This document shows, one piece after another, positions 25,234 to 52,004 of a stretch of DNA of 64,000 nucleotides. This DNA comes from Vulcanimicrobiota bacterium (GTDB taxonomy: Bacteria; Vulcanimicrobiota; Vulcanimicrobiia; Vulcanimicrobiales; Vulcanimicrobiaceae): assembly GCA_963812155.1 (NCBI GenBank), contig CAWETW010000001.1, positions 1 to 64,000 on the forward strand. The letters run 5' to 3'. The notes below the pieces were generated by a model, which ran no database searches, had not been told where the DNA came from, and was given only the letters and a program-made list of their open reading frames with translations. Numbering within the stretch: position 1 is the stretch's first letter; every line of letters begins with the position of its first letter. The translations under genes and the position numbers were made by a program.

Positions 25234-25262
25234 GGTATGCGTCCATCCCGCGACGGCGGTAT

Positions 25263-25292
25263 TTGACAAGCCGCGGCGACGGGTCTTAAAAT
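25263..25292 (+). promoter_or_regulatory. Sigma70-type promoter of the yceD-rpmF-fab operon
   Basis: TTGACA-N18-TAAAAT, followed by a 12-bp leader hairpin at 25305..25331. Confidence 0.75.
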
Positions 25293-25351
25293 GTCCAGGT
25301 CGTGGAAGGCCTCGCCGCTGGCGGGGCCTTCATACTGCAACCGAAGGTGAC

Positions 25352-25853: not shown

Positions 25854-26046
25854 GACGCGCAGCCGCCGTGCGGCAAACTGGAAACTGGACGCGGTGACCA
25901 CCGTCGAATGTCCGCAGTGCCATCAGCCGAAGCGCCCGCATTTCGCGTGCGAGAGCTGCGGCACGTACGCCGGCCGTCAGGTCATCGAAATTCGCGAAGA
26001 ACACGCCGGCGCACGAACGCGGCTGAGATGTCCCTGGACGGCGTGA
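25819..26046 (+). CDS. rpmF: 50S ribosomal protein L32 (3' end probably frameshifted)
   Basis: KTPRSKTRSRRA, CPQC...PHFACESCGTY. Confidence 0.92.
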   Translation: MANLKWKTPRSKTRSRRAANWKLDAVTTVECPQCHQPKRPHFACESCGTYAGRQVIEIREEHAGARTRLRCPWTA

Positions 26047-28730: not shown

Positions 28731-28771
28731 GTACGCACGTCGAGTCATACCGTCGTCAATAAGGAGACGCA

Positions 28772-29016
28772 ATGTCCACCTTCGACAAAGTCAAGAAGAT
28801 CATCGTCGAGCAGCTCGGCGTCGACGAATCGGAAGTCACGCCCGAAGCGTCGATCACCGACGATCTCGGCGCCGATTCGCTCGACCAGGTCGAGCTGGTC
28901 ATGGCGTTCGAGACCGAGTTCAACATCGACATTCCCGACGAAGAAGCCGAGAAGATCAAGACCGTCGGCGACGCCGTGAACGCATCGACGAGGCGACCGC
29001 CGGCTCTTCGGCATAA
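28772..29016 (+). CDS. acpP: Acyl carrier protein (3' frameshift)
   Basis: [25 protein letters not shown]. Confidence 0.95.
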
Positions 29017-29037
29017 GCACGCGGCTGCGTTTCGTCA

Positions 29038-30364: not shown

Positions 30365-30385
30365 CACCCCCCATGAAAGACGAAA

Positions 30386-30682
30386 ATGGTAAAAATCAGA
30401 CTGCGCCGCATGGGCGCGAAGAAACAGCCGACGTACCGCTTCGTCGTCGCCGACGCGCGCGCGCCGCGCGATGGCCGGTTCATCGAAATCCTCGGCCACT
30501 ACAATCCGCGCACGGAACCGAGCACCGTCGAAGTCAACGAAACGAAAGCGAAGGAGTGGCTCGCCAAGGGCGCACAGCCGTCGGTGACGGTGCGCCGTCT
30601 GTTTGCCGAAAAGGGCATCATGGAGCGCGGCCCGATTCCTGAGACCAAACGCAAGCCGAAGTCCGAAAAAGGCGGCTCGTAG
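30386..30682 (+). CDS. rpsP: 30S ribosomal protein S16
   Basis: [13 protein letters not shown]...[15 protein letters not shown]. Confidence 0.98.
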
Positions 30683-31180
30683 ATGAGCGCGTTCGACGAC
30701 GAATTCGGATTATTCGGCGAAGAGTCGGTCGAGGTCGAACGCCGGCCGACGCTCGGTGCGCGCAAGATCGCGGCGAACGAAACGGTGATCGACGAGATCG
30801 AACTCGAGGACGGCCAGCGACCGGTTCGGCGCGATCGCCCTCCGAGGCGCGAACACGATCGGCCGCGGCACACGAACCGCACGCCGGGCGATCCGTGGGC
30901 GGGGCACCGGCGCGCGAGCGCGCTGCTGGGCTTCGTCGCGCGCAAGCTCGTGGCGGATGCGGAATCGGTTGCGGTCGAGCTGTTCGTCGACGAACAAGCG
31001 CAGCCGGTGATCGAATTGGTCGTCGCTCCCGACGATCTCGGCAAGGTCATCGGGCGAAGTGGACGCGTCGCGCACGCGCTGCGCACGCTGGTCCGCGCGA
31101 CGGCCGAAGGACGCGTTTCGGTCGACATCCTCGACAGCGAAGAGGCGGCGGAAGCGCCCGAAGGGGACGACCGCGGCTGA
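30683..31180 (+). CDS. khpA: KH-domain RNA-binding protein KhpA with N-terminal extension
   Basis: DDLGKVIGRSGRVAHALRTLV; located between rpsP and rimM. Confidence 0.85.
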   Translation: MSAFDDEFGLFGEESVEVERRPTLGARKIAANETVIDEIELEDGQRPVRRDRPPRREHDRPRHTNRTPGDPWAGHRRASALLGFVARKLVADAESVAVELFVDEQAQPVIELVVAPDDLGKVIGRSGRVAHALRTLVRATAEGRVSVDILDSEEAAEAPEGDDRG

Positions 31181-31685
31181 AGGCACGCGCCACCCCGTCG
31201 GACGTATCGCCGGCGCGTTCGGCGTAACCGGTGAGATGAAGTGCGACCCGACTAGTTCGGGTCGCTCCGTCTTTGAGCCCGGCGCGCAACTCGACGCGGA
31301 ACGTGACGGCGTCACGTTGACGTTGCGCTTAACCGCAGTTCGTCAGCACAAGGGGCGGCTGTTGATTCGCGCGGAGCGCGTCGAGGACGCCGATGCGGCC
31401 AAAGCGCTCGCGGGTGCGGTTCTTTTCGCGCCCCGCGAACGATTGGAGGTCGGAGCCGACGAGCATCTCGACGCCGATCTCATTGGATGCCGCGTGCTGG
31501 GCGTGGACGGAACGGATTACGGCACGGTAAGTGCCGTCGAGCACTACCCGGCCAGCGACATGCTCGTCGTCGGCAAAGCGCTCGTCCCGATGGTTCGTGC
31601 GATCGTACGCGAAATCGATACCTCCGCGCGCCGAATCCTCATCGATCCACCTCTCGGTTTATTCGACGACGCAACGTTACCGTGA
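31167..31685 (+). CDS. rimM: Ribosome maturation factor RimM (start uncertain)
   Basis: VGRIAGAFGVTGE, DLIGCRV, PASDMLVV, IDPPLGL. Confidence 0.9.
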   Translation, partial: TTAAEGTRHPVGRIAGAFGVTGEMKCDPTSSGRSVFEPGAQLDAERDGVTLTLRLTAVRQHKGRLLIRAERVEDADAAKALAGAVLFAPRERLEVGADEHLDADLIGCRVLGVDGTDYGTVSAVEHYPASDMLVVGKALVPMVRAIVREIDTSARRILIDPPLGLFDDATLP

Positions 31686-32624
31686 AACGGTGAAGGCGTT
31701 GAATTGCGTGCCTGCGAACGTCTTGGTCGGCAACCCTCCGGCAGGATAGTTCCAGTAAGCGAACTGGTTACGATTGTCCGGCTGGGCGACCACGGTGGCC
31801 CCTTGTATCCAAAACTGATACGCGAGTGGAGCGGCGTTCTCAAGCGACGTCGTGCCGACGAGCGTCCCTTTGCGGTTCGAAACCTTAAATCGATAGATCT
31901 GGAACGAGCTGCCGTCGGCAACTGCGACGTGGCTCCCGTCCCACTGCACTCCTCCCGGCCCGGAAATGGCATGATTGAGCGTCACGGCGACAAAGCCCGA
32001 AGCGCCTTTCGGCAGTTCGTAAAAGACAAAATCGTTGCTTGCGCTGATGCCGTCGACGTAAAGATTGCCGTTTGCATCGTACGTGCAAAAGAAGAAGTGC
32101 GCGTCGCGCGTGACTTTATACGTCACGGGCGGATACTTCGGCGCGGCGGGAAAAACGACCACGTTTCCGGGATTGCGATTGCTCGTGCCGCCGCCATACG
32201 TCGCTACCGCTAGGTCGCCGCTCGCCGGGTCGACGGAACATCCGCGAGGATTGTTGCCCGCGCCATTGATGGCCGCAAACGGTGTCGTCGCGCCGTGGGC
32301 AAACTCGACGACCTCGGTTTCGTGGTCGCTGTATCGCGACGTGGTAAGCCAAACGTTTCCCTTGACGTCCGAGCACACTCCACCGACTTCCGCTTGCAGC
32401 GTCAGTTGGCCGGCCGGCATGCCGCCGGGAAACGAAAACATCTCCGCGCCGTCTTCAGCAGTGGCGTACAGCAGACTATGGCGGTTTGGAGCAGATCGGA
32501 AGCCCAAAGACGCGGACGACCTCGCGAGAGGCGTGCTCGACGCGGAACCCGCTCCGCCACATGCCGCAAGCGGCCCACATGTGGCGGCAGTAAGTGCGAA
32601 CGACAGGAACGATCGTCCGGTCAT
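31677..32624 (-). CDS. Secreted beta-propeller lipoprotein
   Basis: Lipobox LAAC; repeats CSDVKGNVWL, CSVDPASGDLAV, CTYDANGNLYV. Confidence 0.75.
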   Translation of the reverse strand: MTGRSFLSFALTAATCGPLAACGGAGSASSTPLARSSASLGFRSAPNRHSLLYATAEDGAEMFSFPGGMPAGQLTLQAEVGGVCSDVKGNVWLTTSRYSDHETEVVEFAHGATTPFAAINGAGNNPRGCSVDPASGDLAVATYGGGTSNRNPGNVVVFPAAPKYPPVTYKVTRDAHFFFCTYDANGNLYVDGISASNDFVFYELPKGASGFVAVTLNHAISGPGGVQWDGSHVAVADGSSFQIYRFKVSNRKGTLVGTTSLENAAPLAYQFWIQGATVVAQPDNRNQFAYWNYPAGGLPTKTFAGTQFNAFTVSR

Positions 32625-37938: not shown

Positions 37939-38548
37939 ATGCCGCTGCAAAATCGGGTAACGCCGTTCGGGGAAGTCGTCGCGCTGCCCGGGCGTGGGAC
38001 GATCATGGGAAACCGCGGTATCCTGCACGACGATGCGCGGCGCGTCGTGCGTCAATTTCAAGTGCGGCGCTGGATTGCGTGCCGTTTAGAGTGGCGCGGT
38101 CGCAAGCGCGCCGGTCATGGCGCCGCACCGCTACACCGAGTTGTTCTTCCTCGACGAAGCTGCGGCGTTCGCCGCCGGGCATCGTCCGTGTGCCGAGTGC
38201 CGGCGCGAAGACTACCGTTCGTTTTGCCGGCTGTGGGAAGGGTCGCGGTGCGGAGTGCCCGCCGCAGATGCGATCGATCTCGCGTTGCACGCGGAACGGT
38301 TGGACGGCCGCCGTAAACGGACGCATCGCGCTGCGTTCGCCGGTTTGCCGGACGGAACGTACGTCGCACCGGACGGACGGCCGTGGCTGGTGTGGGGCGA
38401 CGCGTTGCGCCTGTGGTCGGGGAACGCTTACGTCGAAACGGCGGCGCGTCCGCATGCCGGCGATGTGGAGGTGCTGACTCCGCCCTCAATCGTGCGCGTG
38501 TTTTCCGCCGGGTACCGTCCGGCCATTCATGTCAGCGCGCCGGCATAA
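37939..38548 (+). CDS. Conserved hypothetical protein (MPLQNRVTP family), frameshifted near 38110
   Basis: MGNRGILH, WIACRL, YTELFFLDEA, AGHRPCAECRR, LTPPS. Confidence 0.8.
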
Positions 38549-38593
38549 GTCCGCATGAGGTAGTCGCACCGGCTCGCGGCGGTATCGGCAGGC

Positions 38594-39217
38594 ATGACCT
38601 GGAGTGCGGTGCTCGATATCGTCTTTCCGCCGCAATGCGCCGGGTGCAACGCGCTCGGCAGCGGCTTGTGCCGCGTCTGCGCGCCACTTTCCGGTACCGC
38701 GATCCGTCTGGGTCTTCCGCACGTTGACGTCAGGGCGTACGGCAGGTATGAAGGCGTCGTGCGTTCGGCGATCTTGGCGTTAAAAGACGGACGGCGCGAC
38801 GTGGCCGACGCGCTGGGAGAACGCATCGCGCCGCTCGTCGCATCGCAAGCGTTGCTCGTTCCGGTGCCCACGACTGCGAGGCGCATTCGCGTGCGCGGCA
38901 TGGATGGCGTCGCGCTGCTCGCGTGCCGCGCGGCAGAGATTGCCGGGGCAACGGTCGTCGCGGCGATGCGCCAGCGGGCGGGGGACGCGCAGCGCGGGCG
39001 AACTCGCGAGGAACGTCTGGCCGCGCGCGGACGCTTCGTCTGCGACGCATCGCTGATCGCACGCCGCCGCGTCGTGTTGATCGACGACGTCTGCACGACG
39101 GGCGCAACGCTCGCCGATTGCCGCCAGGCGGTCGTCGATTCAGGCGGATTCGTCGCAGGGGCCGTGGTTGCGGCCGCGACGAAAAGCGGGGCCTCGTGGA
39201 TGTCCCTGCCCGACTGA
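38594..39217 (+). CDS. comF: ComF-family phosphoribosyltransferase
   Basis: N-terminal CAGC...LCRVC and PRPP motif LIDDVCTTGAT. Confidence 0.88.
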   Translation: MTWSAVLDIVFPPQCAGCNALGSGLCRVCAPLSGTAIRLGLPHVDVRAYGRYEGVVRSAILALKDGRRDVADALGERIAPLVASQALLVPVPTTARRIRVRGMDGVALLACRAAEIAGATVVAAMRQRAGDAQRGRTREERLAARGRFVCDASLIARRRVVLIDDVCTTGATLADCRQAVVDSGGFVAGAVVAAATKSGASWMSLPD

Positions 39218-40309
39218 CCGCGCGCGACCTCCTCTATTTAGAGCGCGCCTACGAGCTCGCCGCGCGCGGCACCGGTAGCACCGCACCCAACCCGCCGGTC
39301 GGAGCGGTCGTGGTGCGCGACGGCGCCATCCTGGGTGAGGGCTACCATCGGCGCGCCGGGTGCGCGCACGGCGAAATCGTTGCGCTCGAGCGGGCCGGGG
39401 CGGCGGCACGCGGAGCCACGCTGTACGTATCGCTCGAACCGTGCGTTCGACGCCGGGCGCGTGCCGGCGTGCGCGCCGCGCGTGATCGACGCCGGGATCG
39501 CGCGCGTCGTTTGCGGCGTCGTCGATCCCAATCCCGCAAATGACGGCCGGGGCATCGCGTATCTTCGCGAGCGGGGAGTGGACGTCTCCGTCGCCGGGGA
39601 CGCACGCGCGCGCGAACTCATCGAACTCTTCACCGGCTCGATCGCCTCGACGCGCCCGTATCTCGCGTTGAAGATGGCGATGTCGCTCGACGGCGCGATT
39701 GCGTCGCGTTCGGGCGTGCGCGAACAGCTCGGGTCGGAAGCCGAGCGGCTTTACGTGCGCGATCTGCGAATTGCCTACGACGCCGTGATGGTGGGTGCCG
39801 GAACCGTCCGTGTCGACGACCCGCAGTTGACCGTACGTCCGCACCACGACCGTCTGCGGCCCTATGTGCGCGTCGTCGCGTGCGAAACCGAAACCATTGC
39901 GGCCTCGAGCCGCGTTCTCGCTGCGGTGGATGGATATTCGCCGACGATCGTGCTGGCCCCGGCCGGCCTGCGCCGGCGGTTCGAGAATGTATCCGGTGCG
40001 GCCGACGTCAAGTTCGTCGGAAGCGCCGAGAGCACGCATCTCGACCTTCGCAGCGCGATGGAGACGCTGCGCGAGGCCGGCGTCTACAGCGTGCTCTGCG
40101 AGGGCGGCCCGACGCTGGGAGCGCGGTTGATCGTGGACGGCCTCGTCGAACGCTTTTACTGGGCGATCGCACCGCGGCTGATCCGAAGTGAAACTGCCGT
40201 TCCAGTTTTGGCCGGCGTCGATTTTGCGACCGTGCACCCGCGCCTGCAGTTCGATCGCGCGCACCGCGTCGGCGACGACGTCGTTATTTCGGGACGATTC
40301 GTTGTTTAG
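39196..40309 (+). CDS. ribD: Riboflavin deaminase/reductase, frameshifted near 39450
   Basis: PNPPVGAV, HGE, LEPC, KMAMSLDG, VGAGTVRVDDPQL, LCEGG. Confidence 0.93.
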
Positions 40310-40892
40310 CGGGATTGTAGCGCATCGCGGCGTCGTGGTGGCAAACGACGCACTGTCCGGCGGCGGAGCCCGGCTGTGCGTACGCTGCGATGCCGCCGCG
40401 GATGAAGGCGTCGAGCCGAAGGATTCGGTCGCGATCGACGGCGTCTGCCTCACCGTGACGAATGTCGATTCCGGCTTGCTCGGCTTCGACGTCGTGCCGG
40501 AAACGCTGGCGCGCAGCACGCTCGGCGACCGCGTGCCGGGCGACCGCGTGAATCTCGAGTTTGCGGTCCGGGCCGGCGACCGTATCGGCGGCCACTTCGT
40601 CTACGGGCACGTCGACGCGGTCGCGCGCGTGCTCGCTCGCGCACCCGAAGGACAAGGCGAGCGCGTGCGCTTCGAACTTCCCGCGGCACTCGCGTTCGGA
40701 ATCGTCGAGAAGGCATTCGTGGCGATCGACGGCGTGAGCCTCACGGTGGCCGCGGCCGGCGACGACTGGTTCGAGGTCGCGGTGATTCCCGAAACGCTCG
40801 CGCGCACGACGCTCGGCGAACGCGCCTCCGGCGGCATGGTAAACCTCGAAATCGATCCGATCGCACGCTACGCAGCCGGCAGACGAACGTGA
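40302..40892 (+). CDS. ribE: Riboflavin synthase
   Basis: (M)FSGIV, SVAIDGVCLTV, GGHFVYGHVD, IPET, VNLEID. Confidence 0.95.
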   Translation: MFSGIVAHRGVVVANDALSGGGARLCVRCDAAADEGVEPKDSVAIDGVCLTVTNVDSGLLGFDVVPETLARSTLGDRVPGDRVNLEFAVRAGDRIGGHFVYGHVDAVARVLARAPEGQGERVRFELPAALAFGIVEKAFVAIDGVSLTVAAAGDDWFEVAVIPETLARTTLGERASGGMVNLEIDPIARYAAGRRT

Positions 40893-41344
40893 GGTACCGA
40901 GAGGCGCTCGCGCCCGGAGCGCGCGTCTTCGAGTCGCGCGTGCGCGCACAATGGTGCGACGTCGACGTCGCGGGCATCGTCTATTTCGGTGCGTACTGGC
41001 GGTTCGTCGAACGCGCCGAGATGGATTTCTTCCGCGATCTCGGGTTTGCGTACGATCGCGTCTTCGAAGAGTACGATTTTTGGCTGCCGCGCGTCCGCTG
41101 CGAAGCCGAATACCACGCGCCGGCGCTGATGGACGACTGGCTGCGGCTGCGAACGCACGTCGAGCACGTCGGCGCGTCGAGCCTGCGCTGGCGAACCGTC
41201 GTGTTCAACGAACGCACGGGGGAGCCGGGCGCGCAGTTCGCTTTGACCGTCGCGTGCATCGATCGGGAGCGGAAGAAGAGCCGCCCGCTGCCCGAAGTTT
41301 TTCGCACGGCGCTGGCGGCGTGCGTGGCGCCGGCGACGCCATGA
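40889..41344 (+). CDS. Acyl-CoA thioesterase (4HBT/YbgC hotdog fold)
   Basis: DVDVAGIVYFGAY...ERAE, YHAPA. Confidence 0.85.
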   Translation: MRYREALAPGARVFESRVRAQWCDVDVAGIVYFGAYWRFVERAEMDFFRDLGFAYDRVFEEYDFWLPRVRCEAEYHAPALMDDWLRLRTHVEHVGASSLRWRTVVFNERTGEPGAQFALTVACIDRERKKSRPLPEVFRTALAACVAPATP

Positions 41345-42375
41345 GCGCGACCGTGTCCCGCGTTGCTACGCTGGTGGCGCCGCGACGCATCGAGTTGCGG
41401 GAGGAAGCCGTGCCCGCGGCGCCCGACGGGGGCATGGTCGTTCGCGTCCGCGCCGCGCTCACCGACGGCACGGACCTCAAAGCATATCGCCGCGGGCATC
41501 CGAAGATGCCGATGCCCACGCGCTTCGGGCACGAGTTTTCCGGCGACGTCGTTGCAACCGGCGCCGGTGTCGAGCACGTGCGCCCGGGTGACGCGGTGAT
41601 GTGCACGCATACCGCGCCCTGCGGACGGTGCTTTTGGTGCCAACGCGATGAAGGGGAACTGTGCGAGCGCGTGATGCCCGACATGCTGCTCGGCGCGTAC
41701 GCCGATTACATCGCGGTGCCGGCACGCGTCGTCGCGGTCAACTGCTTTTCCAAGCCGGCCGGTGTATCGTATCCAGAGGCCGCGTTTCTCGAACCGCTGT
41801 CGTGCGTCGTCCATTCGATCGCGTTATTGGCACCGCGCAAAGGCGCGACGGTCGCCGTGATCGGCAGCGGCGCGTTCGGGATCCTGCACGCGCTGCTGCT
41901 GAAGCGCGAGGGTGTCCGCCCATTGCTGATTGGGCGCAGCCCCGAGCGCGCGGAACTGGCGCGAACGCTGGGAATCGAAACCGTCGAAGCCGACGCCCTC
42001 GCGGCAAACGACGCGCTCTTGGCGCACACGCACGGGCGCGGCGCCGACGCCGTCGTCGAATGCACGGGTAACGCGCAGGTCTGGGAGCGCGCGCCGGACT
42101 GGGTGCGCCGCGGCGGAACGGTGTCGTTTTTCGGCGGATTGCCGGAGGATGCGCGCGTCTCGTTTGTCGCGTCGCGCCTGCACTACGACGAGATTCGGCT
42201 GATGAGCCCGTTTCATTTTACGCCGCGCGACGTCCGGCGGGCGTACGACCTGATTTCGTCGCAGGCGTTGCCGCTGATGCGTTTGATAACGCGGATTTGT
42301 CGGCTCGAGGACATCGCATCGGCGTTCGAGGATCTCGATGCGGGAGTCGGCATGAAGGTGCTGTTCGAACCGTGA
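41341..42375 (+). CDS. Zn-dependent alcohol/polyol dehydrogenase
   Basis: FGHEFSG, CGRCFWC...C, EPLSC, GSGAFG. Confidence 0.9.
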   Translation: MSATVSRVATLVAPRRIELREEAVPAAPDGGMVVRVRAALTDGTDLKAYRRGHPKMPMPTRFGHEFSGDVVATGAGVEHVRPGDAVMCTHTAPCGRCFWCQRDEGELCERVMPDMLLGAYADYIAVPARVVAVNCFSKPAGVSYPEAAFLEPLSCVVHSIALLAPRKGATVAVIGSGAFGILHALLLKREGVRPLLIGRSPERAELARTLGIETVEADALAANDALLAHTHGRGADAVVECTGNAQVWERAPDWVRRGGTVSFFGGLPEDARVSFVASRLHYDEIRLMSPFHFTPRDVRRAYDLISSQALPLMRLITRICRLEDIASAFEDLDAGVGMKVLFEP

Positions 42376-43416
42376 GCGTCCCGGCGTCGATGCGAGCGGC
42401 GATTCTTTACGATGCGGGCGACGTTCGCATCGAAGAGCGCCCCGTCCCGAAGTTGCGTGAAGGCGAAGTGCTCGTGCGCACGGCCGCCAGCGGAATCTGC
42501 ACGAGTGACGTGATGGCGTGGTATGTCAAGCGTAAGGCGCCCCTGGTGCTCGGGCACGAGCCCGCCGGCGTAATTGCCGCCGTCGGGCCGGGTGAGGTTC
42601 CGCGCGACGAAAACGGCCGGCCGTTCGCGCCTGGCGAACGCGTTTTCGCGCACCATCACGCGCCCTGCTTCGGATGCCGCTCGTGCGCCCGCGGCGATTA
42701 CGTGCAGTGCGCGACCTGGCGCGCGACGCGGATCGAACCGGGCGGTATCGCGGAATACTTTCGCGTGCCGCACGAAAACCTCCGCGACACGCTGCGGCTT
42801 CCAAGCGACGTCGCTTTTGCCGATGCGTCGCTGGTCGAACCGCTGGGCTGCGTCGTGAAGTCACTGCGCCGCGGCGGTGCCGAAAGCCGGCGACAGCATC
42901 TTCGTCGTGGGTCTCGGCGTCATGGGCTTGATGCACGTCGCAGCGGCGCGCGCGCTCGGCGCCGACGTCGTCGCGAGCGACTTCGTCGAGCAGCGGCGCG
43001 CCTTGGCCGCGTCGCTGGGTGCGACCGCGGTGCATCCCGCTGACGCACGCGATGCGCTCGGCGAGGGCGCCGACGTGACGATCTGCGGACCCGGAATGCC
43101 GGCGGCGATGGATGCGTCGGTAGCGGGAACCGGCCGCGGCGGAACGATCGTCATGTTTTCGCCGTTCGAGCCGGGGAATGCGCTGGCTCTCGATGCGGAG
43201 CGTTTCTACTTCGAAGATTTGCGCGTCGTTGCGAGTTATTCGTGCGGTCCTCAAGATACGCGCGAGGCATTGCGCTTGATTGCACGCGGTGCGGTGACGG
43301 CCGAAGCGCTCGGCGCGACGATGGTCTCGCTCGACGATGCCCCTCGCGCGTACGTCGATCTCGCGCAGGGACGCATCGTCAAGCCGATCGTTGTTTTCGA
43401 GTCACCTGCCGAATAG
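42372..43416 (+). CDS. Zn-dependent alcohol/polyol dehydrogenase, frameshifted near 42880
   Basis: GICTSD, LGHE, CFGCRSC...C, EPLGC, GLGVMG. Confidence 0.88.
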
Positions 43417-43427
43417 CCGGCAGCGCG

Positions 43428-44708
43428 CTACGGCGAACCCTCCACGTACGGCATCGGTGCGCCTTCGGGAATCGGCAAGACGACGTCCTTGTCCGCCGTG
43501 GTGACCCGCCACGCGACGATGAGCGCGACGAGATAGAGCATCGCCGCCAAATACCACGGGGCGCCTGGAACTCCGACATTTCGCCACGGGCCGATGAACT
43601 GCGCGAACACTGCGGTGAAGAGTCCGGGCCCGAGCAGCATGGAGATGCCGCGCAGCGAGCCGAGCGCACCTTGCAGTTCGCCCTGGTCGCTCGCGCTCAC
43701 GTGACGCGTCATCAAGGCTTGCGACGTCGCGTTGTACATCGGCAGACAGATGACGACGATTGCGACGAAAAAGAGAATTCCGTTGGCCGTGCCCGCGAGC
43801 GCGCAGCCGGCTACGGCCAAGGCGAGGCTGGCGAGCAGCACGCGGCGCTCGCCGAACCGGGCGACAACCGGCCCGACCAGCGTCGCTTGATTGATTGCGG
43901 TGATCACGCCGGCGAGTGCGAGCGTCAGTCCGATGCTTCCGGTGCTCCAGCCGAAGACCGCGATGCAGAAGATCACCCACACGTTCGGGAAGATTTCGTG
44001 CGCGAGATATCCGATAAAGTTTACCCACGACAATCCCCACAGTTCGTGGTGTGACCGCAACAGCGCGAGCGATCCGAGCGGATTGGCGCGCTTCCATTCC
44101 AAGCGCGGCGTGCGCTGCGCCGGCGCGAGCGATTCCGGAAGCACGAACAGACCGTAGAGCGTGTTGAGCAGGCTGACGGCCGCGGCAGCCCAGAACGTGA
44201 GGCGTGGATCCAGGTTGCCGACGAGCCCGCCGATGGCCGGTCCGAGAATGAATCCAAGGCCAAACGCGCTTCCGAGCAAACCGAACGCTTTGGCACGTTT
44301 CTCCGGAGCGGTTATGTCCGCAATGTATGCCCCCGCCGTCGACATGTTCGCGCTCGCCATGCCCGATAGCACGCGCCCCGCGAAAAGCCAGAGCAAATTC
44401 GGTGCCAGCGCCATGATGGCGTAGTCGACGACGCTAACCGCGTTCGAGAGCAAGATGACGGGGCGCCGCCCGACGCGATCCGAAAGCATTCCGAGCAGCG
44501 GCGACATGAAGAACTGCATCACCGCCCATGCCGTCGCGAACAGACCGATGACGGTGACGGCGTGCGCCATGTTTTCACCGACGAAGCCGGCGACGAGTTT
44601 CGGCAACACCGGTCCGATCATGCCGAACGTCAGCATGTCGAGCATGACCGTGATGAAGATAAAGGCGGTCGCCGCGCGGCGTCCGGACCCGGCGTTAGGC
44701 AACGTCAT
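43428..44708 (-). CDS. TetA-like MFS efflux transporter
   Basis: GMLSDRVGRRPV motif A, GFILGPAIGG motif C, LPESL. Confidence 0.9.
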   Translation of the reverse strand: MTLPNAGSGRRAATAFIFITVMLDMLTFGMIGPVLPKLVAGFVGENMAHAVTVIGLFATAWAVMQFFMSPLLGMLSDRVGRRPVILLSNAVSVVDYAIMALAPNLLWLFAGRVLSGMASANMSTAGAYIADITAPEKRAKAFGLLGSAFGLGFILGPAIGGLVGNLDPRLTFWAAAAVSLLNTLYGLFVLPESLAPAQRTPRLEWKRANPLGSLALLRSHHELWGLSWVNFIGYLAHEIFPNVWVIFCIAVFGWSTGSIGLTLALAGVITAINQATLVGPVVARFGERRVLLASLALAVAGCALAGTANGILFFVAIVVICLPMYNATSQALMTRHVSASDQGELQGALGSLRGISMLLGPGLFTAVFAQFIGPWRNVGVPGAPWYLAAMLYLVALIVAWRVTTADKDVVLPIPEGAPMPYVEGSP

Positions 44709-45297
44709 CGTGCGTCTCTTTCGTAGCGGAAACGTGATCGAGCGAGGAGAGCCAAAGATCCACGGCAAGGTTCACTCGCGCGCGGTCGCCCGTCGCGCAC
44801 AAGTCGAGGAGGAATCCGCGGAAGCCGGCGACCAGCAGCGTGGCGTGGGCGCGCCCCTGTTCGGGGGTGTAACCCGAGCGCATGCAACAGGGCTCGAGCG
44901 CCGTAAGCCAGTCGTCGACGGCGCGCTCGAGGAAACCCGGGAAGCGCGTGCGATCCTGCAGCGCGAGCGCGTAGACTTCGAAGAACAGCCGCATCAGCGG
45001 CAGCCAGCGAGCGTCGCTGAAGTGGTGCCATAGCGTGCCCGCGATCCCGCGCGGTCCCAGTCCGGCGGTCAGGTCGAGGTTCGCCATGGTGGCCTGCTGG
45101 CGCAGGCGCCCACGCCGGATGATCTCGACGACGAGAGCCTCTTTGGACCCGAAGTAGTAGAGCAAAAGCCTCGGGCTGGCCCCTGCGGCTTTAGCTAATG
45201 GGCGAAGGGAAAGTCCGGCTAGCCCCTTCTCGAGCACGTAGTCGAGGGCGCGGTCGAGCAGTTCTTCCCGGCGGGCGTCGTCGGCAGTGCGGGGCAC
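44695..45297 (-). CDS. TetR/AcrR family regulator
   Basis: SLRPLAKAAGASPRLLLYYFGSKEAL HTH. Confidence 0.92.
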   Translation of the reverse strand: MPRTADDARREELLDRALDYVLEKGLAGLSLRPLAKAAGASPRLLLYYFGSKEALVVEIIRRGRLRQQATMANLDLTAGLGPRGIAGTLWHHFSDARWLPLMRLFFEVYALALQDRTRFPGFLERAVDDWLTALEPCCMRSGYTPEQGRAHATLLVAGFRGFLLDLCATGDRARVNLAVDLWLSSLDHVSATKETHDDVA

Positions 45298-45311
45298 GTC
45301 TCGAGGCTACC

Positions 45312-45337
45312 ATACTTGAAACAGTCGTTTCAAGTAT
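45312..45337. promoter_or_regulatory. Probable TetR operator
   Basis: Perfect inverted repeat ATACTTGAAAC-agtc-GTTTCAAGTAT overlapping the TATGGT -10 box of the tetR gene. Confidence 0.8.
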
Positions 45338-45425
45338 TAGCGCATTAGCTTGCCGATTCGAACGGCCCTTGGCCTACGGTTTCTTGCGCTCGAAGTACTG
45401 GGTCGTCGCGGTCTGAGGGCTTTGC

Positions 45426-45457
45426 GGTTGACAGTTGTCAACCAGCGGCCGTACGCT
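45426..45457 (+). promoter_or_regulatory. Promoter and palindromic operator of HTH-ribBA
   Basis: GGTTGACA-gt-TGTCAACC palindrome containing TTGACA; N18; TACGCT; ATG 7 nt later. Confidence 0.75.
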
Positions 45458-45464
45458 CACACAG

Positions 45465-46878
45465 ATGGAGACGTTTGCGGAGCGGCTGAGAGCCGCGATG
45501 GATAGCGCGGGCTTGAACCCTTCCGATTTGGCGGCAAGCAGCGGGTTGACGGAATCGGCGATCTCGCTGCTGCGCTCCGGCCGGCGGGAGCCGTCGTACC
45601 GGACACTCCAGCGGCTGGCACACGTGCTGCCCGAACTGGCGGCGCATCTCGCGGGCGCGACGAGTCCGTTCGACCCAATCGAAGAAGCAATCGCCGACGT
45701 TCGTGCCGGCAAGATGGTCGTCGTGCTCGACGACGAGGATCGTGAAAACGAAGGCGACTTAGTCATGGCGGCCGCCGCCGTCACGCCCGATGCGATCAAC
45801 TTCATGCGCAAACGACGCCGGCGGCTTGATTTGCGTGCCGCTGCCGGCGCGCCGGCTCGACGAACTGCAGATTCCGCAGATGGTGAGCGACAACACGGCG
45901 CTCCACGAGACCGCCTTCACGGTGTCGGTGGAGGCGCGCGGCTTGACGACGACCGGAATTTCCGCGCACGATCGCGCCGCGACGATCAAAAAACTGCTCG
46001 ACCCCGACGCGCGGCCGGCCGACTTTCTGCGGCCGGGGCACACCTTTCCGCTGCGCGCGCGTGAAGGCGGCGTGCTCGTCCGCGCCGGTCAAACCGAAGC
46101 CTCGGTCGATCTCGCGCGTTTAGCCGGGCTCTATCCCGCCGGCGTAATTTGCGAGATCATGGCCGACGACGGAACGATGGAGCGTTTCGACGGTCTGCGT
46201 GCTTACGCCGATCGCCACGGTCTGAAACTCGTAACGGTGAAAGATCTCATCGCCTATCGCATGCGCACCGAAAAACTCGTCAAACGCATCGCCGAGTTCG
46301 ATCTCCCGACCAAGCACGGCAGCTGGAAAGGCATCGCCTACGAAACCACCATTGACGCAAACACGCACGTCGCACTGGTGATGGGCGAGATCGGCGACGG
46401 CAAGAACGTTCCCGTGCGGGTGCACTCGGAATGCCTCACGGGCGACGCGCTGCATTCGATTCGCTGCGACTGCGCCGCGCAGCGCGACGCCGCGATGGAG
46501 ATCATCGCCGCCGAAGGACGCGGCGTGTTTCTCTATCTGCGCCAAGAAGGCCGGGGCATCGGCCTGGCCAACAAACTGCGCGCCTACGAGTTGCAAGACC
46601 GCGGCGCCGATACGGTCGAGGCCAACGTCGCGCTCGGCTTACCGGTCGATAAGCGCGATTACGGCATCGGATCGCAGATCCTCGTCGATCTCGGCGTGCG
46701 CGAGTTGCGCGTCATCACCAACAATCCGCGCAAGATCTTCGGCCTCGAAGGCTACGGACTGAAGATCGTCGATCGCGTGCCCTCGCAGACGGCGCCGACG
46801 AATTACAACCGGCGCTACATGCATACGAAACGCTCGAAGATGGGGCACATTCTCGACGACCCGGCAGCGGTATCGTGA
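45465..46878 (+). CDS. ribBA: XRE-HTH fused to bifunctional DHBP synthase/GTP cyclohydrolase II, frameshift near 45810
   Basis: FAERLRAAM...[25 protein letters not shown] in frame with [11 protein letters not shown]; later [29 protein letters not shown]. Confidence 0.92.
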
Positions 46879-47375
46879 AGACAAACGGGCCGGCGTCCTC
46901 GCTGCCGCACGGCGTGCCGGATTGCGCCGGCCGGCGCTTCGCGATCGTCGCCGCGCGTTTCTACCCCGAACTCGCCGAGTGGCTCGTCGACGGGGCACGG
47001 CGCGGGCTGCGCGCGTGTAACGTTGCCGACGCCGATATCGACGTCTACGATGTCCCCGGCTGCTTCGAACTTCCGCTGGCATGCCGCAATCTGCTCGACA
47101 CGCAGCGGTACCACGCCTTGATTGCGGTGGGAGCGGTCGTGCGCGGAGAAACGCCGCACTTCGATTACGTCGCGGGCGAGTGCGCGCGCGGCATCATGGA
47201 CGTGCAGTTGGCGACGGGTGCGCCGATCGGGTTCGGCGTGTTGACGACGGAAACGTACGAACAAGCGAAGGAGCGAGCGGATCCCGGCAACGGCGACAAA
47301 GGCTACCATGCCGCCATGGCGGCGGCGGCGTTGCTCGGGATGACGGCGCGCCTTCCCCGAGCAGGTCTTCGATAG
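46875..47375 (+). CDS. ribH: Lumazine synthase
   Basis: VPGCFELP, VRGETPHFDYV, GFGVLT, DKG. Confidence 0.95.
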   Translation: MKTNGPASSLPHGVPDCAGRRFAIVAARFYPELAEWLVDGARRGLRACNVADADIDVYDVPGCFELPLACRNLLDTQRYHALIAVGAVVRGETPHFDYVAGECARGIMDVQLATGAPIGFGVLTTETYEQAKERADPGNGDKGYHAAMAAAALLGMTARLPRAGLR

Positions 47376-47398
47376 GCGTCGCGCAGGAACAAGCGGGG

Positions 47399-48859
47399 AT
47401 GAAACGTTCGCCGCTCGCCATAGCGTTCGCCGTGCTCCTGGCGAGTTGCCACGGCGGAGCTTCGGGCGCTCCCGGGATCCCCGCGCCGGCAACGCGCGAT
47501 GCCGATTCGAACGCGCACGCGATGCAGCCCGCGACGGTGTTGGGAAACGGTAAGATCCAACACATCGTCGTGATCATGCAGGAGAACCGTTCCTTCGACA
47601 ATTTGTTTCATGGGTTCCCCGGCGCCGACACGGCGAATTACGGTTACGGACACGGGGTGAAATACGCGATGCAGCCGATGAGTCTGGCCGACCCGTGGGA
47701 CATCAATCACACCCACGACCAGTTCCTCGAAGACTACGATTCCGGCAAAGGCGACGGTTTCGATCTCGAGATTCGCGGATTTTCGACCACGTGCAAGTAT
47801 CCGCGCAACCATCCGTCGTGCTGGATCTTCTGGGACGCCGGACGCTACAAAACCGCGTTCTCGTACGTTCCGCAGAAAGAAATCAAGGCGTATTGGACGA
47901 TGGCGCATCAGTATGCATTGGGCGATCGCGCCTTCGCATCAAATAACGGTCCGAGTTACGTCGCGCATCAATACATGATTTCGGGCCAATCCGGACACGT
48001 GGCCGAAAATCCGTTGTTCGTGCCGCCGACCCCTCCGCCGCCGAATCCGTGGGGCTGCGACTCAGCGCCGACGACCGAGACCTACGTGCTTCAATACGGC
48101 CGAGCAAAACCGCCGGTGTTCTCCAAAGCGACCGGCGTCGAATCGCTCGGACCCTTCCCGTGTTTTTCGTACGCCACGGCCGCGAAGGTGCTCGACGGCG
48201 CGGGTGTTTCGTGGTCGTACTACGCACCGGCGATCGGCGGCGTCGACCAGGGTGAAATCTGGTCGGCGTTCGATGCGATTTGGCCGGTGCGGTTCGGGCA
48301 GGATTGGGTGCGCAACGTCAAGTCGCCGGAGACGACGATTTTCAACGACATCGCCGCAAAGAAACTGCCCGCGGTGTCGTGGGTCGTGCCATCGTGGATC
48401 AACTCCGACCATGCCGGTTCGCGCAGTTTGACCGGGCCCGATTGGGTCGGCTCGGTCGTCAATGCGATCGGCGAAAGCCCGTACTGGCAGCACACGGCGA
48501 TCGTCGTCATGTGGGATGAATGGGGCGGCTGGTTCGATCACGTCGTGCCGCCTCAGGTGCCCGATCCGCATACGCACGCGTTTGAAGGGTTTGGATTCCG
48601 CGTGCCCGTCATCGTACTGTCGCCGTACGCGAAACCCGGCTACGTCTCGCACAAGCGACACGAGATCGCATCCACGCTGCACTTCATCGAGGCGGTCTTC
48701 GGCCTGCCGTCACTGAACGGCGCCGATGCGCGCGCCGACCAGTTCGGTGACATGTTCGATTTTTCGCAAACGCCTCTGACATTTCGTAAAATCCCGACGC
48801 ATCTACAAACCCAGGATTTTCTGCGCCAGCCGCCGTCGTCGACGCCGCCCGACTACTGA
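47399..48859 (+). CDS. Phosphoesterase-family lipoprotein, third paralog
   Basis: Lipobox LLASC; HIVVIMQENRSFDN, NHPSCW, WDEWGGWFDHV. Confidence 0.9.
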   Translation: MKRSPLAIAFAVLLASCHGGASGAPGIPAPATRDADSNAHAMQPATVLGNGKIQHIVVIMQENRSFDNLFHGFPGADTANYGYGHGVKYAMQPMSLADPWDINHTHDQFLEDYDSGKGDGFDLEIRGFSTTCKYPRNHPSCWIFWDAGRYKTAFSYVPQKEIKAYWTMAHQYALGDRAFASNNGPSYVAHQYMISGQSGHVAENPLFVPPTPPPPNPWGCDSAPTTETYVLQYGRAKPPVFSKATGVESLGPFPCFSYATAAKVLDGAGVSWSYYAPAIGGVDQGEIWSAFDAIWPVRFGQDWVRNVKSPETTIFNDIAAKKLPAVSWVVPSWINSDHAGSRSLTGPDWVGSVVNAIGESPYWQHTAIVVMWDEWGGWFDHVVPPQVPDPHTHAFEGFGFRVPVIVLSPYAKPGYVSHKRHEIASTLHFIEAVFGLPSLNGADARADQFGDMFDFSQTPLTFRKIPTHLQTQDFLRQPPSSTPPDY

Positions 48860-48942
48860 CGGGCGGGAGGAACTCGGGGCCCCGGGTCGCATCTATCGCG
48901 CTTCGGGATTTGCCTCTCGGAACCGCGTTGGAGAATCGGGCA

Positions 48943-49236
48943 TTGGAAGATAAAATCATTACATGCAAGGACTGCGCAGCGCAGTTCGTCTTCTCGGCGA
49001 GCGAACAGCAGTTCTTCGCCGACAAAGGATTCCAAAATCAACCGCAACGCTGTCGCGATTGCCGGCAGGCGCGGCGCTCGCAGGGCAGCGGCGAAGCACC
49101 GCGCGCGAACCGGCCGGCGTTCGAAGCCGTCTGCGCCGCCTGTGGGGTGGAGACGACGGTGCCGTTCCGTCCGCGCGGTGACCGCCCGGTCTACTGCCGT
49201 ACGTGTTACGCCGCGCAGGTGCCGGCCGGGGTTTGA
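48943..49236 (+). CDS. Zinc-ribbon / CxxC-x17-CxxC protein
   Basis: CKDC...F...EQQFF...PQRCRDCR then CAACG...VPFRP...PVYCRTC. Confidence 0.88.
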   Translation: MEDKIITCKDCAAQFVFSASEQQFFADKGFQNQPQRCRDCRQARRSQGSGEAPRANRPAFEAVCAACGVETTVPFRPRGDRPVYCRTCYAAQVPAGV

Positions 49237-50240
49237 GCCATCCCGCGGTCGTCGCTTGGGAAGGCGACGCCGTAGCATTTCTCGACCAACGGCTGTTGCC
49301 GCACGAGGTGCGCGTCGAACGAGCGCGCACGGTGCACGAAATCGAAGCCGCCATTCGTGGGCTGGGCGTCCGCGGTGCGCCGTGTATCGGTGTCTTCGCC
49401 GCATACGGCGTCGCTCTGCTGCGACGCACGACTTCCGACGAGGAGACGTTCCGTGAAGCCGTTGCGCGCGTTCGCAGCGCGCGCCCGACGGCGGTTAATC
49501 TCGCCTGGGCCGTCGATCGCGTGCTGGCCGCCGGCGACATGCTCGCCGAAGCGCACGCCATCGCCGAAGAGCAAGCGCGCACCGATGCCGCGATGGCCGC
49601 GCACGGCGCGGATCTGATCCCCAAGAACGCTCGCGTCCTCACGCACTGTAATACCGGTCCCCTGGCGACGGCGGCGGGCGGCACGGCACTCGGCGCGATC
49701 GTCGAGGCGCACCGTGCCGGCAAGCGTCCGCGCGTGTTCGTGGATGAAACGCGTCCGCTACTGCAAGGCGCGCGTTTGACGATGTTCGAGTTGCGCGAGG
49801 CCGGCGTCGACGCCGTGCTGCAGAGCGACGCTGCCGCCGCCAGCGCGATGGCCCGCGAGCGCATCGATTTGGTGATCGTCGGCGCCGACCGCATCGCTCG
49901 CAACGGCGATACCGCCAACAAAGTCGGGACGTACGGTCTCGCAATCCTCGCAGCGCATCACGGCATACCGTTTTACGTAGCGGCGCCGCGCTCGACGTTC
50001 GATTTCGCGCTGGAAAACGGCGCGGCGATTCCGATCGAGCAGCGCGACGCCGAGGAAGTCGTCGCTTTCGGCGCGACGCGCGCCGCACCGGAAGGCTCGG
50101 AGGTCTACAATCCCGCGTTCGACGTGACGCCGGGGCATTTGGTTACGGCATTCGTGACCGAGCACGGCGTGCTGCGTCCGCCCTACGGAGAATCGATCGC
50201 CGACCTCGAGTTTCGTGAAGCTCTACGACTTTCTCGATAA
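49233..50240 (+). CDS. mtnA: Methylthioribose-1-phosphate isomerase
   Basis: LDQRLLP, VRGAP, RPTAVNL, LTHCNTG, ETRPLLQGARLT, GADRI, ANKVGTY, NPAFDVTP. Confidence 0.95.
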   Translation: MSHPAVVAWEGDAVAFLDQRLLPHEVRVERARTVHEIEAAIRGLGVRGAPCIGVFAAYGVALLRRTTSDEETFREAVARVRSARPTAVNLAWAVDRVLAAGDMLAEAHAIAEEQARTDAAMAAHGADLIPKNARVLTHCNTGPLATAAGGTALGAIVEAHRAGKRPRVFVDETRPLLQGARLTMFELREAGVDAVLQSDAAAASAMARERIDLVIVGADRIARNGDTANKVGTYGLAILAAHHGIPFYVAAPRSTFDFALENGAAIPIEQRDAEEVVAFGATRAAPEGSEVYNPAFDVTPGHLVTAFVTEHGVLRPPYGESIADLEFREALRLSR

Positions 50241-51213
50241 ACAGCCCGCGATCGGCCGGCTGGTCGTCATCGAAGGCACGGAACGCGCGCTGGCGGAGCG
50301 TGCGCTCGAGGTGCTGATCGATCGGCTGCTACCCGCGGAAGCGCGCGATCTGAACTTGGAACGCTTCTCGGGCGACGACGCTGCGGACGCCGCGCGCATG
50401 CGCGAAGCGCTTCAAGCAATGCCGTTTCTGGCGGATCGTCGCGTCGTCGTCGTCGAGGACGCCCAGACGCTGAAGGCGCAGCCGCGTCGCGACCTTCTGG
50501 CGGTGGCGGAAGCGGCGCCCGAGGGAAACACGCTCGTGATCCTCGACCTGCTGTCGCCGCGCTCGGAGCGCCCGCAGGCGCTCGGCGCCGCGCTGGGGCG
50601 CGCTGCGCTGCGCGTAGACACCACCGCCTCCGAGGACGTACGCGCACGTTTCGTCGAGGAGACGTTGGAGCGTTTGGGCGCAAAGGCGGAGGCGCGCGTC
50701 GTGCACGCGCTGTCGCGCAGCGGTGCCGAACTCGCGGCCGTGCGCAGCGATCTCGAGAAACTCGCGCTCGGCGGAAAGACGATTACCATGCGCGACGTCG
50801 AGGGCGAAGCGCTTTCGATCGAGGATCCGAAGGCCTACCTTTACGCGAGTAATCTCGTGGAAGGGCGCGTCGCCGAAGCTATGGCGATCGCGCAGGAATG
50901 TTTCGACGCCGATGCGCGCGCGGGCGTCTCGCTCCTGTCGGCTCTCGCCAACGAATGCGGATATCTCTGGGAGTTGACGCGCCCCGGCGGCGCGCTGCCC
51001 GCGCGCTTACGCTGGCGCGAACGGAGCTTGCGGGGGCTCGCGCAGCGCGTCGGCGAGCGGCGTGCACGCTTGGCGTACGAGCGCGCGCTGCGCGGAATCG
51101 AGGCGATCGTGACGGGACGCGCCGGCAGCGATTCGGTGGATCAGCGAACGCTGGTCGAGCGCATCAGCGTCGAACTCTCCGGCTTGGCCGGCCGCCGTCC
51201 GGTCAGTACTTAA
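50215..51213 (+). CDS. holA: DNA polymerase III delta subunit
   Basis: DLNLERF, AMPFLADRRVVVV, DLEKL; divergent C-terminus. Confidence 0.75.
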   Translation: MKLYDFLDKQPAIGRLVVIEGTERALAERALEVLIDRLLPAEARDLNLERFSGDDAADAARMREALQAMPFLADRRVVVVEDAQTLKAQPRRDLLAVAEAAPEGNTLVILDLLSPRSERPQALGAALGRAALRVDTTASEDVRARFVEETLERLGAKAEARVVHALSRSGAELAAVRSDLEKLALGGKTITMRDVEGEALSIEDPKAYLYASNLVEGRVAEAMAIAQECFDADARAGVSLLSALANECGYLWELTRPGGALPARLRWRERSLRGLAQRVGERRARLAYERALRGIEAIVTGRAGSDSVDQRTLVERISVELSGLAGRRPVST

Positions 51214-51901
51214 GCAGTTTCAACTCGACGGTATCGTTATTGTAGACGCTGCGTTGCGGCAGGTGCGAGCGCTCGTCGAAGACATACACGGGCAGCTTCA
51301 GGGTCGGATCGAACGCAATGCGCATCTTGTCGTTGGCCGAGAGATAGCGTCCGCCTTGCTGCGTCAGTTTTCCGTTGTTCACGACGAGAATCGAGGGCGC
51401 GGCGCCTTTGATCGTGCCTTCGCCTTTCGCTTCGTACGCGGCGTTCCAGGTGGTAGACTCTCCCATGAAACCGTTGGCACCCGGAATGATCGCTGCGGTG
51501 ATCGTGTACTTAAGCGGCCAGGTCGCGTGCGCACTTCCCATCAGCGGGTGGAAATACTGGCGCGCCAGCAGCGGAAAGATGGTGAGTTGGATCGGAGAGA
51601 GCGCGAACGGACGCTGCGTGCATGCGACGTTGCCGTTCGGATAGAGTTCGCAGGTATTGGTCGCGCGCGGCCGCACGGTGTTCCACCACGAGTCGGTGCC
51701 GGTAATCATCACGCCGCCGTCGGCCGCTTGTGCGCCGACGTCCACCGTTTCCGTCCCGGTGCCGGTCCCCTGTTTCGCCGCTTTGGTGTTGTAGCCGAAT
51801 TCGTAGACGAGATGCCGTCCGGTAGCCGAGGCAAGGGCCGACGCCTGAATGCTCAGGCCGAAAATGACTGCGAGGAACAAACAAAACGCTTTCACGTGCA
51901 A
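51203..51901 (-). CDS. Secreted hypothetical protein
   Basis: GGAGG SD, signal peptide, ADGG and C...C motifs. Confidence 0.7.
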   Translation of the reverse strand: MHVKAFCLFLAVIFGLSIQASALASATGRHLVYEFGYNTKAAKQGTGTGTETVDVGAQAADGGVMITGTDSWWNTVRPRATNTCELYPNGNVACTQRPFALSPIQLTIFPLLARQYFHPLMGSAHATWPLKYTITAAIIPGANGFMGESTTWNAAYEAKGEGTIKGAAPSILVVNNGKLTQQGGRYLSANDKMRIAFDPTLKLPVYVFDERSHLPQRSVYNNDTVELKLLKY

Positions 51902-52004
51902 ACCTCCAGGATAAGGAAGGAACGGCTTGTTCGCCGGAGACCGGCGCCGACCTGGGCGGCCGGCAGCCGGTCACGCTCCGGCGGGCTCGCGGGCTGTATC
52001 GAGT

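Follow-up and report, generated by a model that had tools for sequence, protein, structure and literature searches.

Bacterial riboflavin synthesis is the textbook case of riboswitch control, with the flavin mononucleotide (FMN) riboswitch being near-universal. The locus described here raises the question of how the pathway is controlled where the gene of its entry enzyme itself begins with a DNA-binding domain. It lies on positions 1 to 64,000 of contig CAWETW010000001.1 of a Vulcanimicrobiota bacterium (assembly GCA_963812155.1); this whole stretch of 64,000 nucleotides (nt) is called the window in the following. There, the ribBA gene (45465-46878) encodes a helix-turn-helix (HTH) domain of the XRE/Cro-C1 type in front of RibB and guanosine triphosphate (GTP) cyclohydrolase II. 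We propose, with a probability of roughly 0.65, that a dimer of this HTH-RibBA protein binds an inverted repeat (dyad) in its own promoter and blocks RNA polymerase, resulting in negative autoregulation of the ribBA-ribH unit.

The HTH-RibBA fusion

The initial annotation had described the HTH as running in frame into RibB, with no separate start in between and with a frameshift near 45810 that lies past the junction. Profile searches confirmed this architecture. HTH_3 (PF01381, Pfam) scored 33.7 bits against a cut-off of 23 and HTH_31 28.0 bits against a cut-off of 27, both covering approximately nt 45486-45629. Profile positions 1-46 of DHBP_synthase follow from nt 45681 in the same frame as the HTH, and the window's frame contains no stop codon between HTH and RibB. 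The frameshift is a single extra G at 45814. Profile positions 43-191 of DHBP_synthase and a complete GTP_cyclohydro2 domain are read in the +1 frame, in the open reading frame (ORF) 45790-46878. Both enzyme domains are full length when the pieces on either side of the frame break are counted, in line with RibBA, and the reading frame of the window is interrupted by the extra G. The start at 45465 is backed by the relatives, in which an ATG or GTG opens the frame at the corresponding alignment position.

The nearest relative, G001 (96% identity in residues 1-114), reads through the 45814 site in a frame of 470 amino acids (aa). Residues 69-462 of this orthologue align with chain residues 4-404 of a solved RibBA (4i14, E 2e-139). 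The 68 N-terminal residues are therefore the addition, and there is no further sensor domain. Residues D89-D98 of the acidic loop of RibB as well as C323, C334 and C336 are invariant in 20 orthologues, and so is the Cys triad motif HSEC...RCDC in their alignment. These motifs, the acidic loop in RibB and, in GTP cyclohydrolase II, the Cys triad that binds zinc, are presumably the catalytic ones, and the enzyme part would catalyse the first steps of both riboflavin branches. For the N-terminal domain, the nearest solved HTHs are those of the XRE regulator 6jq1, DdrOC, 434 repressor, C.AhdI and SinR, with weak E values of 0.0065-0.85. An AlphaFold2 model of the G001 orthologue predicts helices at residues 4-15, 19-26, 30-38, 45-54 and 56-63, with a predicted local distance difference test (pLDDT) of 66-90 in 10-residue blocks over residues 1-60. 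Its input was a shallow alignment of 20 close sequences, and the enzyme part was excluded from fold searches and from statements on domain geometry.

The distribution of the fusion was investigated by searching residues 1-114 in 40 genomes, of which those of the families f1 and f2 belong to the order of the window and those of f3 to another order of the same class. The whole query was matched in one open frame in all 29 f1 and f2 genomes. Most of these frames comprise 470-490 aa; shorter ones end at contig ends, and that of G019 is cut inside a contig. In the f3 genomes (11 of 11) the match is confined to the RibB part, from about residue 40-68 onwards, and RibBA begins with MPL(A/S)xIE. With the HTH alone as query (66 aa, E<=1e-10) across 400 genomes of the phylum, matches were obtained in 274 of 296 f1 and 5 of 5 f2 genomes, and in none of the 99 genomes from the other 19 families of Eremiobacterota. 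Five f1 genomes without an HTH match comprise three that have RibBA without HTH (G182, G168 and G110), one in which the gene is cut by a contig end (G058) and one without a RibB match (G197). The counts of relatives, phylum genomes, sites and riboswitches include the unpublished genomes G022 and G036, and the phylum count also G227, G285, G257, G375, G395, G274, G195, G250, G335 and G244. Within these searches, the fusion is confined to two families of one order of Eremiobacterota, uncultured soil bacteria.

This is in line with the titles of 76 further loci, which read Candidatus Eremiobacteraeota or Vulcanimicrobiota, Baltobacteraceae, Cybelea, Velthaea, Elarobacter and Tyrphobacter. A few are labelled otherwise (one Verrucomicrobiia, one Alphaproteobacteria, some only "bacterium"), which we take as loose binning or labelling. 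In a collection of 5.8 billion proteins at least 458 clusters carry this N-terminus (E<=0.001). Among the 120 clusters listed, PF00926 is present in all, and PF01381 and PF00925 are present in addition in 117, the combination of HTH and both enzyme domains that the initial annotation had asked to look for in relatives. For two of the 120 no HTH hit is precomputed, and PF00925 is missing from three short ones. Named cluster members are annotated only as bifunctional RibBA.

A separate HTH gene with a lost stop and an internal start were both considered and rejected: no stops occur between HTH and RibB in about 280 related genomes, which also answers the earlier suggestion to look for a stop and restart there, the linker of the relatives has no conserved Met or Val, and the promoter directly precedes the HTH start. 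A word-based search among proteins of 39-126 aa revealed no free-standing family of HTH homologues. Of its 15 matches, ten carry the RibB start, three are marked as partial in their source and the rest are short. The ratio of nonsynonymous to synonymous substitutions (dN/dS, method NG86) amounts to 0.25 for the HTH, 0.92 for the linker, 0.09 for RibB and 0.125 for GTP cyclohydrolase II; these values are rough, with dS of about 1.1 being near saturation. The low value of the HTH compared to the linker indicates that selection maintains the HTH, with the linker behaving like an unconstrained tether. Across the turn and recognition helix, the residues that 20 full-length orthologues share without exception are G27, T29, E30, A32, I33, S34, R41, P43 and S44. 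Judged by this conservation, selection maintains the fusion as a genuine gene of about 470 aa.

The frame break in the window was compared with contigs from four public runs (X1 to X4) over 45300-46900. The X1 contig (316 nt, with three other differing letters) has one base less at 45815 and the X4 contig (240 nt) one base less at 45814, which is a single event within alignment ambiguity. Both runs that span the site are hence without the extra base, and it occurs in no contig of the four runs, two of which (X2 and X3) have no contig across the site. Window and G001 differ by 65 isolated single-base indels in an alignment of 57,388 columns. Of these, 48 are extra bases in the window and 43 cluster at 24-32 kb. 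Since the run contigs lack the extra base and isolated indels of this kind are numerous, the frame break is most likely a consensus error of the assembly. A genuine pseudogene in a decaying riboflavin pathway is improbable by comparison. Such a decay would fit the finding that two rib genes of the window, ribBA and ribD, each carry a 1-nt insertion relative to G001, and the strain behind the run contigs may differ slightly from that of the window. Against it stand the X1 and X4 contigs, as well as the pattern of the indels and the state of the genome (5 contigs, 83.85% complete), which fit consensus errors.

In ribD, the insertion is an extra C at 39451, which splits the deaminase (frame of 39199) from the reductase (ORF 39335-40309). 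Both rib insertions create the same 9-mer, CGACGCCGG (39447-39455 and 45810-45818). This may be a coincidence or a systematic consensus error; the other indels of the window do not show that context. The region 24000-32000, where mostly extra bases were found, looks poorly polished, and genes located there would appear broken.

The promoter dyad and its specificity

The initial annotation had also pointed to a palindrome in 45420-45460. We located it as an inverted repeat with perfect 8-nt arms at 45426-45443, and it proved to belong to a conserved dyad (Table 1). With up to three mismatches allowed, the 18-mer occurs only once in the window, compared to a mean of 0.01 in shuffled sequence. 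The core TTGACA-NN-TGTnAA is found in 27 of 29 orthologous promoters whose flanking sequence is not alignable. Of 72 further loci, 62 carry the dyad in a slightly degenerate pattern and the other ten near variants, such as TTGACAACTGAAAA.

The conservation of the single positions was derived from 94 unique sequences anchored on the -35-like hexamer, with the right half not being used for anchoring. The right half reads T (0.84), G (0.96), T (0.87), n, A (0.96), A (0.94), G (0.86), and the flanks are symmetric (C 0.77, G 0.86). With 1.0-2.1 bits per position, the right half TGTnAAG is conserved like the -35 hexamer itself. Its sole free position mirrors the G of TTGACA, which is needed by the promoter itself. 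By these frequencies, the pattern is the expected look of a dyad-symmetric protein site lying over a -35 box. As a candidate operator, the 14-bp dyad resembles the operators of phage 434. Back-to-back -35 boxes serving a divergent gene were considered as an explanation and rejected, as the dyad is also present in loci whose upstream gene, ribE or a thioesterase gene, has the same orientation as ribBA. In some promoters (e.g. L034, L050, L053, L064 and L093) an A/T-rich stretch, (g)tatatca(t/c)c, abuts the -35 hexamer; it is absent from the window and might represent either an UP-like element or a second site.

In 74 of 90 unique orthologous promoters, the -35 is followed at a distance of 16-18 nt by a TAnnnT hexamer. 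In 72 of these 74 the first in-frame start is located 6-9 nt past the -10-like hexamer (GTG 40, ATG 34). With such a short distance the ribBA mRNA appears to be leaderless, which would leave no room for a riboswitch. None of the public runs listed as containing the locus was an RNA data set.

The same geometry bears on the direction of control. Activators that bind in the spacer go along with spacers of 19-20 nt, not with the 16-18 nt observed here. Further, the dyad, centred near -30, extends over a perfect -35 and the spacer, so that RNA polymerase and a bound dimer would compete for the same DNA, and a biosynthetic enzyme that activates its own gene but has no sensor would be expected to make an unstable circuit. 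That HTH-RibBA activates its own promoter rather than represses it is, on balance, very unlikely, even though the -10 is weak (3 of 6 positions), so that the promoter might need help, and activation is proposed for the archaeal regulator RbkR in the accessible part of its description (PMC5397151).

Further sites were searched for by means of an IUPAC pattern. In the genome of the window this pattern has a single exact match, and allowing one mismatch adds four matches compared to two for the reversed control. The exact site is present in 27 of 30 fusion genomes, whereas the reversed control gave three matches in 41 genomes in total. Two of the fusion genomes without exact site carry variants, TTGACGTTCGTTAA and GTTAAC..TGTTAAC, and the third is unpublished. 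The fusion genomes contain 27 exact sites at ribBA and three extras, namely a duplicated contig end of the ribBA promoter, one site in front of a gene that is Fur-like by eye and one without a clear gene nearby. The duplication concerns G017, in which ribBA promoter and gene start were assembled at the ends of contigs C224 and C227; it inflates the site count by one. A wider regulon was considered and rejected in view of the four one-mismatch matches versus two of the control, and of the extra exact sites in relatives, which share no theme. The regulon is therefore predicted to consist of the ribBA-ribH unit alone.

The dyad was not found upstream of any of six complete RibBA genes without HTH (three f1, three f3), and in three of these six ribBA simply follows ribE. 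In 89 of the 104 orthologues retained after filtering, position 12 of the candidate operator varies with the residue at the third place of the recognition helix (TE-S/A/G-AIS). With Ser, this position is A in 27, C in 21, T in 4 and G in 2 cases; with Ala, it is T in 26, A in 2 and C in 1.

Proposed autoregulation and the gene neighbourhood

RibB forms dimers. The HTH pair of an HTH-RibBA dimer would bind the dyad C-TTGACA-NN-TGTnAA-G, which, with the promoter elements placed as described, covers the -35 box and the start of the spacer and is centred near -30. A dimer at this place would keep RNA polymerase off the promoter and so repress the presumably leaderless transcript of ribBA-ribH. The pathway entry enzyme would thereby be under negative autoregulation, in a lineage whose genomes yielded no FMN riboswitch match. 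A DNA-binding autoregulator had already been suggested in the initial annotation, and the suggestion gains support from the conservation of the fusion, the promoter dyad and its co-occurrence with the HTH.

Several observations weigh against this proposal. The ribBA gene is frameshifted in the window as assembled. A consensus promoter scanner called no promoter in 45250-47600, which is explained by TACGCT matching only 3 of 6 positions of TATAAT. The dyad is absent at ribD-ribE, and most of the pathway would escape control. Ten of the 72 further loci and 2 of the 29 orthologous promoters carry variant sites only, and in one fusion genome the Fur-like gene is preceded by a second exact site. 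The exact 14-mer also occurs elsewhere in 4 of 11 f3 genomes, all of them without the fusion. On a tree of the enzyme part, the covariation of residue and operator comes down to 4 independent pairs, on average 3.6 changing the same way and 0 the opposite way, which is not significant (p = 0.125); the covariation is suggestive but underpowered. The AlphaFold2 model is poor beyond the HTH (mean pLDDT 59.4) and silent on the placement of the HTH relative to RibB. The counts include unpublished genomes, and dropping these alters no pattern. Finally, binding of the dyad by the HTH, repression, the leaderless mRNA and the action as a dimer are all steps that we infer from what was directly observed, i.e. 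the fusion with its conservation and selection, the conserved promoter dyad, and the facts that this dyad is nearly unique in the genome and accompanies the HTH.

Two of these points would also suit a different reading, in which another factor binds the palindrome, or the palindrome is a mere promoter feature, and the HTH does something else (another DNA target, RNA or a protein contact). This would be in accordance with the similar 14-mers at unrelated promoters in fusion-less genomes and with a covariation that is not significant after phylogenetic correction. Of three f3 sites examined, two precede genes that are ArsR-like by eye and one lies inside an ORF. These palindromes indicate that the 14-mer alone is not diagnostic of the HTH-RibBA system. 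Nevertheless, the site tracks the HTH (27 of 30 genomes with, 0 of 6 genes without) and is usually the only such site in a genome. Right half and symmetric flanks are conserved though the promoter needs neither, and the dyad is kept beside a same-strand upstream gene, which speaks against paired -35 boxes of a divergent gene. We consider this reading unlikely and prefer autorepression by HTH-RibBA. In fusion-less genomes of the sister order, perfect TTGACA-NN-TGTCAA palindromes stand in front of small genes that are ArsR/SmtB-like by eye at L113 (G037:C1:612853) and L114 (G033:C47:6783).

If HTH-RibBA represses its own promoter, its affinity for the dyad might in addition be set by GTP, ribulose-5-phosphate, a pathway product or flavin. 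Such a metabolite-sensing trigger enzyme is a stronger version of autorepression and does not contradict it; it would replace the FMN riboswitch. The riboswitch search is in agreement with this. The initial annotation had seen none upstream of ribBA or ribD, and indeed no Rfam family reached threshold in 38000-52000, the sole match at E<=1 being a weak COG2908. RF00050 was not found in the whole genome, as far as its 83.85% completeness allows. It was likewise found in 0 of 41 genomes of the class under stricter Infernal filters, a search that was positive in 7 of 14 named control genomes. A complementary distribution of fusion and FMN riboswitch was also considered; it is uninformative, as the count of 0 in 41 holds with or without the fusion.

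Further, residues 69-462 align end to end with plain RibBA, and without an extra sensor domain any sensing would have to use the active sites. On the other hand, neither RibB nor GTP cyclohydrolase II is known to contain a flavin site, and nothing in the sequence points to a coupling of the domains. The nearly neutral linker (dN/dS 0.92) fits a passive tether, and plain autorepression requires no ligand. In other fusions, namely BirA, NadR and RbkR, the enzyme domain is used as a sensor, according to the accessible part of PMC5397151. Taken together, sensing is a tentative extension of autorepression, possible and clearly less probable than autorepression as such.

The coordinates of the locus are compiled in Table 1. 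With the start of ribH overlapping the stop of ribBA, both genes belong to the same operon, and ribH follows the fusion gene in 72 of 76 related loci. The genes ribD (RibD_C) and ribE (Lum_binding) are located about 5 kb upstream, at roughly 39200-40892. Between ribD-ribE and ribBA lie a thioesterase gene, a dehydrogenase fragment and a divergent pair of a major facilitator superfamily (MFS) transporter and a TetR gene. In 8-11 of the 76 loci ribD-ribE, partly with the thioesterase gene, lies upstream on the same strand, with promoter and dyad in between. The divergent TetR-MFS pair directly precedes HTH-ribBA in 18 of 76, an arrangement also seen in the window.

Table 1. Positions of the features of the HTH-ribBA locus in the window.
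Feature	Position	Strand	Remarks
Candidate operator, perfect inverted repeat GGTTGACA-GT-TGTCAACC, 8-nt arms	45426..45443		conserved core C-TTGACA-NN-TGTnAA-G, 14-16 bp
-35 hexamer TTGACA	45428..45433	+	left half-site of the dyad; read from sequence; position conserved in relatives
-10-like hexamer TACGCT	45452..45457	+	18 nt past the -35, 7 nt before ATG
HTH-ribBA gene	45465..46878	+	ATG at 45465, TGA stop at 46876-46878
XRE/Cro-C1-type HTH (residues 1-63, five helices)	45465..45653	+	Pfam HTH_3, HTH_31
Variable linker between HTH and RibB (about residues 58-68)	45636..45668	+	gap-bearing alignment columns
DHBP synthase (RibB) domain, split by the frame break	45669..46257	+	PF00926 on both pieces
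Extra G breaking the frame	45814	+	AAAC[G]ACGCC, compared to the relatives G001 and G007
GTP cyclohydrolase II (RibA) domain	46285..46782	+	PF00925, 231 bits, profile 2-165 of 165
ribH (lumazine synthase)	46875..47375	+	DMRL_synthase, 162 bits; GTG start overlaps the ribBA stop

A second perfect inverted repeat, ATACTTGAAAC-N4-GTTTCAAGTAT, was observed at 45312-45337, 15 nt upstream of the TetR gene (44695-45297, minus strand), which is paired with the MFS transporter gene (43428-44768). The repeat is shared by G001, G023 and G020 and is probably the operator of TetR. The GTG start of ribD at 39199 appears inside the end of the upstream gene 38564-39217, which by eye encodes a ComF-type phosphoribosyltransferase, so that ribD, too, would be left without a leader. 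Downstream, at 48910-49236, a small protein with the treble-clef zinc fingers zf_Tbcl and zf_Tbcl_2 is encoded between a phosphoesterase gene and an IF-2B-family gene.

Comparison with known systems

Compared to an ordinary RibBA such as 4i14, the protein carries 68 extra N-terminal residues, i.e. the HTH and a linker. Similar to the XRE repressors 6jq1, DdrOC, 434 repressor, C.AhdI and SinR, a five-helix fold is predicted for this part by the model. Those repressors are small stand-alone proteins or possess their own dimerisation or sensor domains, and none is fused to a biosynthetic enzyme. With the FMN riboswitch (RFN, RF00050) the system would share the logical place, a feedback at the head of the rib genes, as predicted here; it differs in being a protein rather than an RNA. 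HTH-RibBA resembles the trigger enzymes in that a DNA-binding domain is joined to an enzyme that appears active. A candidate operator of its own pathway is the conserved dyad at the ribBA-ribH promoter, with none at ribD-ribE.

RibR of Bacillus subtilis is comparable in that a protein containing a flavin-enzyme domain controls the expression of rib genes, as is predicted for HTH-RibBA. According to the accessible part of a 2025 review on riboflavin regulation (PMC12542839), RibR binds RNA, namely the leader and the FMN riboswitch, rather than DNA, and carries a flavokinase as its enzyme domain. The same part of the review contains no HTH, XRE or RbkR term, and RibR is the sole bacterial protein mentioned in it. 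No description of HTH-RibBA was found in full-text literature searches, which exclude subscription journals. The regulator is currently invisible in databases, as public annotation names only a bifunctional RibBA.

BirA, NadR and PutA resemble HTH-RibBA in carrying a DNA-binding domain on a metabolic enzyme and repressing their own pathway, as is predicted here. For these three, which are listed in PMC5397151, ligand-dependent binding is established, whereas for HTH-RibBA it is a possibility; none of them acts in riboflavin synthesis and their domain families are different. If our reading is true, HTH-RibBA adds a bacterial case to the few enzyme-repressor fusions known from cofactor metabolism, and a small one, with one protein and one 16-bp site. 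If also the sensing were true, one order of Eremiobacterota would have swapped the FMN riboswitch for a protein feedback loop in the entry enzyme, and HTH-RibBA would be the first bacterial DNA-binding riboflavin regulator of this kind.

The one described protein counterpart in the riboflavin pathway is RbkR of Archaea, which, in the accessible part of its description (PMC5397151), combines a winged HTH with a cytidine triphosphate-dependent riboflavin kinase. Both proteins carry the DNA-binding domain at the N-terminus of a riboflavin-pathway enzyme. For both, comparative genomics yielded predicted operators upstream of rib genes, and both occur in lineages that lack FMN riboswitches. The differences concern the domain of life, the HTH (XRE/Cro-C1 in contrast to winged) and the enzyme: RbkR is built on the kinase of the last step, HTH-RibBA on the first-step enzymes RibB and GTP cyclohydrolase II. 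For RbkR a wider regulon and FMN-dependent activation were proposed, and for HTH-RibBA one promoter and repression, each of them predicted. If the proposed autoregulation is true, HTH-RibBA would be an example of regulation rebuilt in a lineage without riboswitch and a bacterial counterpart of RbkR at the opposite end of the pathway.

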